A stretch of DNA of 63,798 bases, filler included. It is 5 parts of 5 records of this genome, joined end to end, with 100 filler letters (N's around TTAATTAATTAA, not from the genome) between each part and the next. Parts side by side here need not be neighbours in the genome. Positions count along the whole stretch, not along the records: positions 57,692 to 63,798 come from SRR20825019_587; 4 more parts are not named here. The stretch is one strand, 5' to 3'. The notes beneath the pieces were generated by a model. That model made no database searches. It was not told the origin of the DNA and worked only from the letters and a program-made list of their open reading frames with translations. The position numbers were made by a program, and so were the translations under genes. Of this stretch, positions 57,592 to 60,193 are shown one piece after another. Every line of letters starts with the position of its first letter. Within the stretch, counting starts at the first letter, position 1.

Positions 57592-57691
57592 NNNNNNNNN
57601 NNNNNNNNNNNNNNNNNNNNNNNNNNNNNNNNNNNTTAATTAATTAANNNNNNNNNNNNNNNNNNNNNNNNNNNNNNNNNNNNNNNNNNNN
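57592..57691. other. Artificial contig linker
   Basis: N44-TTAATTAATTAA-N44. Confidence 0.98.
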
Positions 57692-57949
57692 CTCGCGGTT
57701 GCGGGCCTGGCTGCGGGTCTCTTCGCACTGGATCACCAGCGCACCCTCATTGGTCCAGCGCCGTCCTGCCAGCCGCCTGAGCCGGGACTTGACCGGATCG
57801 GGCAAATTGGGGCTCCGGGCGGCCTCGAACCGCAGTTCGACCGCGGACGACACCTTGTTCACGTTCTGCCCACCGGGACCGGACGAGCGCATGAACGTTT
57901 CGGTCAGTTCCCAGTCTTCGATGGCGATGGTGTCATTGATGCGCAGCAT
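57692..57949 (-). CDS. arfB: Alternative ribosome-rescue factor ArfB (partial)
   Basis: RSSGPGGQNVNKVSSAVELRF; RSQARNRE. Confidence 0.93.
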
Positions 57950-58020
57950 GGCCGCAGTATCGCATCGGAACGATCCGGCGGGAAGGGGCGTTTGTCTGCG
58001 AACCCGCACAGGAGACCCCC

Positions 58021-58407
58021 ATGCTGCAACTGCCATCCCTGATCCAGGTCGCCGCCAGCCGCGACGATCTGTATGTCTTCCGCATCACCGGCGAAGTCAG
58101 CGCCGAGGATATGTCCGAGCTTGCCGCTTATATGAACGATGTGTTCGACAAGCCGGGCAAGGTGGACCTGATGCTGATATTCGACCGCTATGACGGCGCT
58201 GAATCCGGCGCCTCGTTCAGCTGGGAAACGCTGAAATCCCGCCTGCGCGCGGTGTCGAACCTGAACAAATATGTGGTTGTCGGCGCGTCGGACCATGCCG
58301 CCGAACTGATCGAGGCAATGGGCAGCGTGATACCGGTCGATGCGGAAACCTTTGATGAGGAAATCAGCGCATGGCGGTATCTGGACGCCGAAGCGGTGGC
58401 TGCTTGA
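58021..58407 (+). CDS. SpoIIAA-like (STAS/SEC14) protein
   Basis: FRITGEVSAEDM, KYVVVG, AWRYL pattern; RBS GGAG. Confidence 0.8.
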   Translation: MLQLPSLIQVAASRDDLYVFRITGEVSAEDMSELAAYMNDVFDKPGKVDLMLIFDRYDGAESGASFSWETLKSRLRAVSNLNKYVVVGASDHAAELIEAMGSVIPVDAETFDEEISAWRYLDAEAVAA

Positions 58408-58417
58408 TCCACGTACG

Positions 58418-58450
58418 AAAAAGGGCCGCGTGGCGTTTGCCTGCGGCCCT
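58418..58450 (-). terminator. Rho-independent terminator (minus strand)
   Basis: AGGGCCGC-AGGCAAACGCCAC-GCGGCCCT followed by a T run on the minus strand. Confidence 0.8.
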
Positions 58451-58523
58451 CTCGAAAGTTTCAGGAGGCGGGGTCGGTTAGACCATATGGTCCACTTGGT
58501 GGATCACGTCGCCAAGGGCTGCC

Positions 58524-58580
58524 TTACCGGGCATTCCTCCAAGCTGTTCCGACACCTCTCTCCAATACCTTTCTGGACAC
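58524..58580 (-). CDS. Candidate 18-aa small protein MSRKVLERGVGTAWRNAR within a putative sRNA
   Basis: AAAGGAGGTG RBS (58586-58595) just upstream of GTG; TTGACA upstream; terminator downstream. Confidence 0.45.
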   Translation of the reverse strand: MSRKVLERGVGTAWRNAR

Positions 58581-58653
58581 TAGAGCACCTCCTTTCAATT
58601 GTTTCAGATACTTTAAGGTTGGCACGTAAGCGCGATTTGTCAAAACACTTTTT

Positions 58654-59265
58654 TCAGACAAAGCGACGTGTAATGGCCCGAAACGGGATAAGTGCCACCA
58701 AAGCAAGCAATAATTTTACCGACCAATCCGCAATCGCCAGGGACACCCACAGCGGGGCCACGGGCCCCACACCCAGAAGCGGCAGCATTTCAGCCGCCCA
58801 GCTGACGTCGGTGGCCGGATGGATGAACGCCAGCGATGATGCAAAGGCGATGGAAAAGAACAGGATCGTGTCAACGCTGCTGCTGACCAGCGTCGAGGCC
58901 AGCGGCGCACGCCACCACGCGCCTGTGCGTAGGGCCGAAAAGATCGCCACGTCGATAAGCTGCGCGGTCAGAAACGCCACGCCTGACGCAATGGCAATGC
59001 GCACGGTAACCAGTGGTCCGAACTCGCCCATGATCTGCGTGCCGATCAGGCTGCACACCACACCTGCGACAAAACCGGCCAGCACAACCTTGCGCGCGGC
59101 CGCAGCGCCATAGACGCGGTTCATGATGTCGGTGACCAGAAAGGCCAGCGGATAGGTAAATGCCCCCCATGTCAGCCATTGGCCGAACAGGAACTGGACA
59201 AGGATATTCGACGCCACGACGATGGCGGCCATGGCAATGATGCCGGGGATATGTGTGCGTTGCAT
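58654..59265 (-). CDS. yhhQ: Queuosine precursor transporter (YhhQ/VUT family)
   Basis: VVASNILV, LTWGAFTYPLAFLVTD, AFLTAQLIDV, VDTILFFSIAF. Confidence 0.9.
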   Translation of the reverse strand: MQRTHIPGIIAMAAIVVASNILVQFLFGQWLTWGAFTYPLAFLVTDIMNRVYGAAAARKVVLAGFVAGVVCSLIGTQIMGEFGPLVTVRIAIASGVAFLTAQLIDVAIFSALRTGAWWRAPLASTLVSSSVDTILFFSIAFASSLAFIHPATDVSWAAEMLPLLGVGPVAPLWVSLAIADWSVKLLLALVALIPFRAITRRFV

Positions 59266-59271
59266 GGATGT

Positions 59272-59320
59272 ATTCCGTTTTTACAAGGGTGCGGCGACTT
59301 GGCCCGCCATTATGGCAGAC
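59272..59320 (-). promoter_or_regulatory. Candidate preQ1-I-like riboswitch in the yhhQ leader
   Basis: CAAG-UCGCCGCACC-CUUG stem-loop, UAAAAA tail, then CGG able to pair with loop CCG and overlapping the RBS region. Confidence 0.6.
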
Positions 59321-59356
59321 GGGCGGTCCATAGGCCCAAGCGGGCCACCGTGCAAG

Positions 59357-60193
59357 CTATTCCGTCAGGGTGAATTCGACGATCTGGTTGCTTTGAAAGA
59401 TGTTAAAGTTGTCGTCGGCCACCAGCGACAGATGGGTGGTTCCGGTGCCATCCTGCCAAACGCTTAACCCTTCCAGGTTGCCATATGTGCCTGCGTCAGT
59501 GGTCAGCAATGTCGTCTCGGACAGGTCGGGCGCGGTCAGGTCGAAGCGCCGGATGCGGCTGGCAAAGCCGCGCAGGGACACGGCGCGTTCCAGAACATAC
59601 AACAGCCCGTCGGGCCCGAAGTCGGCACCCGTGATCAGAAACGATCCCTTGCGCGGCAATGCGGGGCCTTTGGTCCAGGTGCCATCCTTGTATTGATACA
59701 CCGGAAACGGCGCGGTGTTGGTTTCGGACGCCTCGGGCATCGTCACCAGCGTGCCGTCACCTGCAATTGCCAAGGCTTCCAACGCGCGGTTTTCCACCAT
59801 TCCTGCAAAGTCGGGGTGGGGCTTTAGCCGGTCAAAGCTGCCGTCGGCACGTTCCGCCATAACCGCCGCTGGCCCTTCCAGCGAGATATACAAGCGGCCC
59901 TTCGCATCCACCGCCATCCCTTCGGTGTCGCCCAGGTGGGTGGTGCGGTCGTCAGGCGTGGCATCGGTGACGGCAAGCGTGTCGCCGCTGCGATCCAAGG
60001 TCAGGTGAAACAATCCACCCCGATCCGACAGCACCAGCGCTTCGGCGCCGCCATCGGACATTTCGATCGCCGACAGCCCGCCAAAGCTGTCCGACAGACG
60101 TGGCAGGGGGGTCACCCCGTCCAGCGTCAGTGTCGGTTCAGCATTCGCACAGGCCGCCGCGCAGATCAGCGCGAGGACAGAACGCCAGAGCAT
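59357..60193 (-). CDS. Esterase-like activity of phytase family protein
   Basis: FGGLSAI, LSDRG, DTEG, LEAL, GNLEGL, ADDNF; signal peptide from ATG 60193. Confidence 0.85.
   Translation of the reverse strand: MLWRSVLALICAAACANAEPTLTLDGVTPLPRLSDSFGGLSAIEMSDGGAEALVLSDRGGLFHLTLDRSGDTLAVTDATPDDRTTHLGDTEGMAVDAKGRLYISLEGPAAVMAERADGSFDRLKPHPDFAGMVENRALEALAIAGDGTLVTMPEASETNTAPFPVYQYKDGTWTKGPALPRKGSFLITGADFGPDGLLYVLERAVSLRGFASRIRRFDLTAPDLSETTLLTTDAGTYGNLEGLSVWQDGTGTTHLSLVADDNFNIFQSNQIVEFTLTE

Follow-up and report, generated by a model that had tools for sequence, protein, structure and literature searches.

The gap between a SpoIIAA-like gene and yhhQ in the window (the whole 63,798-nt stretch of DNA analysed here) raises the question of whether it holds a gene of its own and, if so, which one. 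A sequence-only reading had proposed a new unit on the minus strand at 58418-58643, an unannotated small RNA or small-protein gene. Its picture of a stand-alone unit, in which a structured small RNA carries, after a ribosome-binding site of exceptional strength, an ORF of 18 codons, agrees with the published gene rreR, but the novelty claimed for it does not survive, because the unit falls into the published rreR family and also into the Rfam family RF01867, below the threshold of that model. The unit is very likely the rreR orthologue of Sulfitobacter; rreR represents the alphaproteobacterial rre ("ribosome-regulated expression") genes, which encode small mRNAs, in the Rhodobacter/Roseobacter clade. 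Since rreR was described by Hahn et al. in 2016, the unit at 58418-58643 belongs to an already published gene family and is an ordinary orthologue, not a new element.

The minus-strand TTGACA, CAACCT, AAAGGAGGTG, GTG...TAA frame, palindrome and T-run stem are all found where that reading had put them. Upstream lies yhhQ, encoding a Vut_1 family transporter (58654..59265, minus strand; Pfam PF02592, E = 1.9e-27). The -35-like hexamer TTGACA of the putative rreR promoter is read on the minus strand at 58638..58643, 11 nt past the yhhQ stop codon, and the putative -10, CAACCT (58621-58616, minus), follows after a 16-nt spacer and is not a consensus -10. AAAGGAGGTG is read at 58595-58586 (minus). 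The extended Shine-Dalgarno (SD) region, named "17c region" by Hahn et al., is GAAAGGAGGTGCTCTAG at 58580..58596 (minus), and its last base is the G of the GTG start. The rreR sORF (58524..58580, minus) runs from this GTG (58580-58578) through the 18 codons of MSRKVLERGVGTAWRNAR to a TAA (58526-58524). Beside the stop codon is a conserved GGCAGCCC motif (58516-58523, minus; alignment A1), and the unit ends in an intrinsic-terminator-like hairpin, GGGCCGC...GCGGCCC followed by UUUUU (58418..58449, minus), which is seen both in the sequence and in the fold. Promoter and terminator consensus scans of 57900-59400 made no call of either kind; the loop of the rreR terminator exceeds the length allowed by the simple scan that missed it.

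The assignment to rreR rests first on the extended SD. The 16S comparison was made in G001, the genome of a 99%-identical relative. The 17-mer CTGGATCACCTCCTTTC occurs there exactly twice, both times at the 3' ends of Rfam-called 16S genes, and the sole other site in that genome with at most two mismatches is the complement of the rreR region. The window's 17-nt region reads GAAAGGAGGUGCUCUAG and forms with the 16S tail 11 contiguous pairs, a C-U mismatch, two pairs, a G-U and two further pairs, which makes 15 of 17 Watson-Crick pairs (11 contiguous) plus one G-U. It carries two substitutions relative to the perfect 17-mer, A to C and C to U, the second of which is G-U compatible with the 16S rRNA. 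The complementarity had been called perfect, which is true for the 11-nt GAAAGGAGGUG but not for the full 17-nt region, which differs at these two positions. The strict search criterion of the original paper was at least 16 nt of perfect 16S complementarity (PMC5711450), and the window copy falls short of it; the region is homologous nonetheless. Of 79 orthologues, 20 carry the perfect 17-mer and three have the variant seen in the window. The complementary region ends in the GTG start codon's first base (GAAAGGAGGTGCTCTA-GTG in the window), as in the definition of rreR.

As published, rreR is a gene of the Rhodobacter/Roseobacter clade with an extended 16S-complementary region, a GTG start and 18 codons (Hahn et al., RNA Biol 2016;14:1353, PMC5711450). 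The window unit resembles it in the extended SD ending in the G of GTG, the 18-codon sORF, the clade and the predicted small terminated transcript; it differs in the two substitutions of the 17-nt region, and Sulfitobacter is not among the species of the Fig. 8 legend. In the text of that paper, the family's only experimental data come from rreB of Bradyrhizobium japonicum, a 165-nt mRNA whose 17-nt SD region is complementary to the 16S 3' end. Its transcription start has been mapped and its promoter is RpoD-like, its SD and start are predicted to be partly base-paired, and its RNA co-sediments with 30S subunits and is translated weakly, as detected by egfp fusions. Translation is limited both by the extended SD and by GTG, and replacement of the start codon stabilises the RNA (PMC5711450). 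The window unit has the same architecture as rreB, although rreB has 14 codons, encodes a peptide with no similarity to RreR and lies between tRNA-Gly and sensor kinase genes (PMC5711450). A role as ribosome sponge, which had also been suggested for the unit, is not borne out by its homologue rreB: overproduction of the ribosome-binding rreB RNA was without effect on growth, which argues against a simple sponge, and the authors reject simple ribosome recruitment as a major function (PMC5711450).

The unit is also recognised by a second, non-coding model. In the Rfam scan, RF01867 (CC2171 sRNA) matches at 58422-58604(-) over its full length (model positions 1-159) with 29.4 bits and E = 1.7e-4, below its gathering threshold of 75 bits; the best scores in the genomes G001-G004 are 28-43.8 bits. 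Because of this score, we call the unit an apparent homologue of RF01867 under the curated threshold rather than a curated member. Like CC2171, it has the conserved 5' motif cAAcaAucGAAAGGAGGUGAUCCAGUGUC and the terminal hairpin, and its first 28 nt are nearly identical to the consensus (26 of 28 positions agree by manual count on the Rfam alignment); unlike the window unit, CC2171 is filed by Rfam as a non-coding sRNA gene. With 16.3 bits (E = 0.85), RF02552 (CCUCCUCCC-motif sRNAs of the RcsR1/CcsR type) did not rise above noise, its threshold being 60. RF01867 matches were found in 22 of 151 sampled alphaproteobacterial genomes, five of them above the threshold. The rre motif is present in 21 of the 22 class-wide loci fetched, and all 21 of these RF01867 loci show rre hallmarks. 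By sequence, CC2171 and the rre genes appear to be one family. CC2171 is said to have been first reported by Landt et al. in 2008. This Caulobacter sRNA has been validated by Northern blot in Methylorubrum extorquens (bioRxiv 10.1101/2022.01.24.477521). The literature search found CC2171 papers, none of them tying CC2171 to rre, and for later work on rreB or rreR it returned the original Hahn et al. paper alone, the remaining matches being to the unrelated RREB1.

Weak RF01867 matches of about 17 bits were also seen at 16S 3' ends (G001:C2:778580-778628 and G001:C3:4311-4359), because the 5' motif of the model is the complement of that end. The same complementarity probably explains the matches with E <= 1 in unrelated control genomes, for example Bacillus and Thermus.

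Conservation among relatives was examined through the neighbouring gene. A YhhQ search with one genome per species gave 80 loci, all Roseobacter-group or Paracoccaceae. The host lineage fits the rreR clade: the YhhQ search has its best match, at 99% identity, in a Sulfitobacter record, and the other 79 yhhQ loci are Roseobacter-group or Paracoccaceae records. An rreR profile (nhmmer) was found in 79 of the 80 loci, in each case immediately past the yhhQ stop and on the strand of that gene, with E values of 3.9e-29 or better for complete copies and of 3.4e-33 and 1e-38 for L064 and L067, which are cut by the locus end. Conservation extends to the putative promoter, the SD, the start, frame and stop, the fold and the terminator. 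The recurrence in relatives for which the sequence-only reading had asked is thus seen for the unit as a whole. All 79 copies have a TTGNNN hexamer at a distance of 50-55 nt upstream of GGAGG, and in 29 of them it is TTGACA. The sole locus without rreR is L017:3100-3480, from a Pseudophaeobacter MAG, in which arfB begins about 110 nt after yhhQ; since L017 keeps yhhQ-arfB, loss of rreR need not disturb the flanking order.

RNA-library contigs cover the unit in four of four runs, from four studies, although such contigs give no ends, strand or level and may contain DNA; 23 runs were listed, seven were recorded as RNA, and the contigs of four were examined. One of them, X3 (364 nt), extends from 58435 into yhhQ. 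This contig, and the position of rreR on the same strand directly after yhhQ in 79 of the 80 loci, would suit a product derived from the yhhQ 3'-UTR or from read-through, not an independent unit. Such an origin is highly improbable, because the TTGNNN stands at a fixed distance from GGAGG in every copy, contigs cannot show single transcripts, rreB has a mapped transcription start and an RpoD-like promoter (PMC5711450), and the family is stand-alone elsewhere, among unrelated neighbours. In the 21 class-wide loci, yhhQ was found within 1.5 kb in none and arfB in one, there on the other strand, and the Pfam neighbours (111 ORFs of at least 200 aa scanned) are mutually unrelated. Since the neighbours outside Rhodobacterales are unrelated and yhhQ is absent there, the rreR unit is a gene of its own. 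A leader sensing queuosine-modified tRNA, which the queuosine link of yhhQ brings to mind, was dropped as a candidate: yhhQ is adjacent in Rhodobacterales only and in 0/21 loci class-wide, and the other neighbours are unrelated.

Whether this gene encodes a peptide is the point on which the rre and CC2171 descriptions part. It is rather unlikely that the unit is purely a non-coding regulatory or ribosome-binding RNA, as Rfam files CC2171, whose 16S-complementary 5' end serves as a 30S-docking seed and whose frame is open as ribosomes sit there, the peptide having no role. Against it stands the first part of the frame. The frame has 18 codons in 76 of the 79 orthologues (the rest have 17 codons, 20 codons and one cut by the locus end), and the start is GTG in 78. 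Among 70 distinct 18-codon copies, in-frame stops number 0/70 compared with 15/70 and 25/70 in the other frames, and the terminal codon is always a stop (TAG 36, TGA 20, TAA 14). In these copies, every third base is found in the TCN of codon 2, and codon 8 alternates between AGA (30) and CGA (23); the synonymous alternations in the rreR frame are TCN, AGA/CGA, TTG/CTG, GGT/GGC and GGA/GGG. Over codons 2-12, pairwise amino-acid identity is 0.767 in frame and 0.667 and 0.583 out of frame, and the N-terminal consensus of RreR among the orthologues is MSR-x-x-LERGVGT.

The last third of the frame behaves differently and favours the non-coding alternative. In codons 13-18, amino-acid identity is no higher in frame (0.278) than in the two other frames (0.314 and 0.341), and third positions are the least variable there. 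As the 5' strand of a covarying helix is made up of these codons, the constraint on them comes from the RNA and not from the peptide.

In Pseudoruegeria aquimaris (L026:3169-3369), the SD extension is shortened, the start is ATG and the 18-codon frame is the unrelated MIIGKQEQLVKVTSEVKV on the same RNA scaffold; the peptide has been replaced and the length of the frame retained.

The fold itself, conserved with compensatory changes, is likewise compatible with an RNA that acts without its peptide. A 221-nt stretch of the window folds at -87.0 kcal/mol, compared with -67.2 +/- 4.3 for 200 shuffles (z = -4.64; 0/200 as good). The consensus fold was obtained with RNAalifold on 77 copies (alignment A1) and consists of four helices: the SD core with CGCCUCC, the start-codon hairpin, an internal helix and the terminator. 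Overall, 94.9% of the cells of these helices are paired; sliding the partners by 1-3 columns lowers this to 43.5-55.0%. Both-sided changes occur in 12 pairs, and 0/500 shuffles reach any of the five measures.

In the first helix, the anti-SD-like CGCCUCC (58464..58470, minus) pairs with the SD core GGAGGUG (58586-58592), both in RNAalifold and in the window's MFE fold. Across the alignment (columns 20-26 with 186-192), 97.3% of its cells are paired, the 3' strand varying (C/U, G/A) with pairing kept. The start-codon hairpin (58561..58584, minus; UCU.GUGU with ...UAUU.GGA) encloses, in the RNAalifold model, the start codon together with the 3' part of the extended SD, and is paired in 98.3% of cells (columns 28-35 with 44-51) with one-sided changes only. 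These two of the four helices use the invariant 5' region and vary on one side only. The other two change on both sides. The internal helix (58494..58544, minus; GCUUGG 58544-58539 with CCAAGU 58499-58494) encloses the stop codon and GGCAGCCC; it has both-sided changes in five of six pairs and 83.1% of cells paired (columns 83-88 with 134-139). The terminator helix (columns 226-234 with 246-254) has them in seven of nine pairs and 98.2% of cells paired. The terminator recognised earlier from its letters, a GC-rich stem with a T-run, is present and its helix covaries, although the simple scan did not call it.

The two substitutions of the window copy can be read against this fold. The A-to-C change gives an extra C-G pair in the start-codon hairpin, beside a weakened U-G pair, and in other Sulfitobacter copies of A1 the same C-to-U change is accompanied by a U-to-C that turns the G-U into a G-C. 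The palindrome GACCATATGGTC (58481..58492, minus), which had been singled out as a perfect 12-bp element, is indeed there and forms the stem of a small variable hairpin, but its sequence is unconserved: a perfect palindrome of at least 10 nt occurs in 2/77 copies, and a hairpin of at least 4 bp at this site in 54/77. It is followed by a conserved CUAACCG (58475-58481, minus; A1). In the 21 class-wide sequences, no pairing of the SD core with a 3' CCUCC was seen by eye; Rhodobacterales have this pairing.

The class-wide loci bear on the peptide in both directions. Their frame-0 ORFs have 18-32 codons in 21/21, whereas the other frames are shorter than 18 codons in 9/21 and 11/21, and the second codon is TCN in 20/21. 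The start position is always ATG (12), GTG (7) or TTG (2), which speaks against an RNA without a coding function; the peptides, however, share Met-Ser only, over frames that vary from 18 to 32 codons, as expected for one. Since the peptides have only Met-Ser in common and the frames are all open, it is the frame that is conserved, and the peptide just within lineages: initiation and a short open frame appear to be conserved across the class, and the peptide sequence within lineages only. A non-coding function is also favoured by the position of the stop, which in Rhodobacterales precedes the GGCAGCC hairpin motif and elsewhere follows it, by the weak translation of rreB and by the finding that synthetic RreB and RreR peptides are unstructured (PMC5711450). 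On the other side, translation of rreB was detected with egfp fusions (PMC5711450). With the absence of in-frame stops, the TCN and AGA/CGA alternation and the higher frame-0 identity in codons 2-12, we prefer to regard the window unit as rreR, a presumably translated small mRNA.

Two features of the class-wide loci may be added. ATG is the commonest start among L089-L109 (12/21), while Hahn et al. call the ATG-starting Azospirillum unusual (PMC5711450). The GAGCAGCC/GGCAGCC hairpin motif is common to the class, and lies inside the frame (E-Q-P) in some lineages and just past the stop in Rhodobacterales.

Downstream of rreR, the window departs from its relatives. The SpoIIAA-like gene (58021..58407, plus strand; Pfam PF11964, E = 8.7e-14) is convergent with rreR, and beyond it is an arfB-like gene with an RF-1 domain (57692..57949, minus; Pfam PF00472, E = 4.6e-18). 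A masked stretch at about 57598-57691, read as X in translations, cuts off arfB in its 3' part and, on the far side, the end of the next gene. Among the 80 loci, arfB is downstream on the same strand in 72, in the order yhhQ-rreR-arfB, rreR and arfB occurring together in 71. A SpoIIAA-like homologue lies between rreR and arfB in just four of the 80 loci (L001, L002, L015 and L033), and the SpoIIAA-like gene is an insertion that breaks the order yhhQ-rreR-arfB in the window. The translation-related surroundings noticed in the sequence-only reading are real as far as arfB is concerned, but the linkage to yhhQ is confined to Rhodobacterales.

The start of arfB is 180-384 nt past the SD in 64 of the 71 loci with both genes, and about 13-64 nt past the terminator T-run in 47 of 63 measured loci, where the gaps come from a crude pattern that gave no terminator call in nine loci and mis-set a few (for example L007 and L059). 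This closeness, and the speculation of Hahn et al. on trapped ribosomes, rreB cleavage and ribosome rescue (PMC5711450), could be taken to mean that rreR is a ribosome-sensing leader or attenuator of arfB, in which ribosome binding or translation of the sORF sets the read-through of the terminator and the short RNA is the terminated product. We regard this as very doubtful. The convergent SpoIIAA-like gene separates rreR and arfB in the window, L017 keeps yhhQ-arfB without rreR, and the single arfB near a class-wide locus (1/21) is on the other strand. In the window and relatives, moreover, a promoter-like -35/-10 ends 6-8 nt before the arfB ATG, as judged by eye and unscored.

That promoter-like element (CTTCMC... 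then GCGMTAYGAT-like) was read by eye, unscored, at 57949-58000(-) in the window and in L004, L010, L012, L023, L028, L042 and L077; between its end and the ATG there are 6-8 nt, and no SD can be seen. By its sequence, arfB would have a promoter of its own and its mRNA would perhaps be leaderless, the gene fitting closely behind the rreR terminator. A further argument against an attenuator is the outcome for one candidate antiterminator, in which GGCAGCCC would pair with the terminator's 5' strand; it found no support: 74.1% of its cells are paired compared with 73.8% in shuffled alignments, 152/500 shuffles reach it, and one pair is mismatched in 74/76 rows.

Leader-peptide attenuators and dual-function sRNAs (SgrS/SgrT, RNAIII/hld) also place a short translated frame in a structured, terminated small RNA. 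The window unit differs from them in that it comes without a regulated downstream gene, a supported antiterminator or a known base-pairing target.

As an orthologue of rreR, the unit would work as follows. A promoter right after yhhQ would give rise to an independent RNA of about 185-190 nt, starting some 8-12 nt upstream of GAAAGGAGG and stopping at the intrinsic terminator. At the 5' end of this RNA, the 17-nt region would pair with the whole single-stranded 3' tail of the 16S rRNA, followed by the GTG and the 18-codon frame. In the free RNA, the SD core is predicted to be paired to the 3' CCUCC segment and the start codon to lie inside a hairpin, so that the 30S subunit would have to invade from the single-stranded GAAA/AACAA 5' edge. 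If the window copy behaves as rreB does, its RNA would bind 30S subunits tightly and be weakly translated to the 18-residue RreR, with initiation at the start codon governing the lifetime of the RNA. From the analogy to rreB, we infer that 30S binding, weak translation and start-codon-dependent decay hold for the window copy.

The order yhhQ-rreR-arfB is of note because Hahn et al. speculate on trapped ribosomes and rescue and do not mention arfB; in the text of the paper, yhhQ, arfB and Rfam each have no occurrence (PMC5711450). A functional tie of rreR to ribosome rescue, in which the near-invariant order would reflect an RNA that is either ArfB's natural client or the sensor by which ArfB is tuned, is quite unlikely. 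It would have an over-stable duplex of SD and anti-SD tether or stall ribosomes on a very short frame, and read-through of the terminator or ribosome-dependent cleavage of the rreR RNA would be conceivable. If the tie were true, the rre/CC2171 family would monitor free or stalled ribosomes.

As a discovery, the unit is of small weight, the family having been described in 2016 and the window adding one more orthologue. For annotation it has some value. Pipelines leave an 18-codon frame uncalled, and copies of the Rhodobacterales branch escape the Rfam model (28-44 bits compared with 75), so that rreR is invisible in hundreds of Roseobacter-group genomes. The additions to Hahn et al. are increments only, namely the link to CC2171, the pairing of the SD with a 3' CCUCC and the order yhhQ-rreR-arfB. 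Together with the compensated start-codon hairpin, the equivalence to CC2171, the CCUCC pairing and this gene order may aid work on the function of the rre genes.
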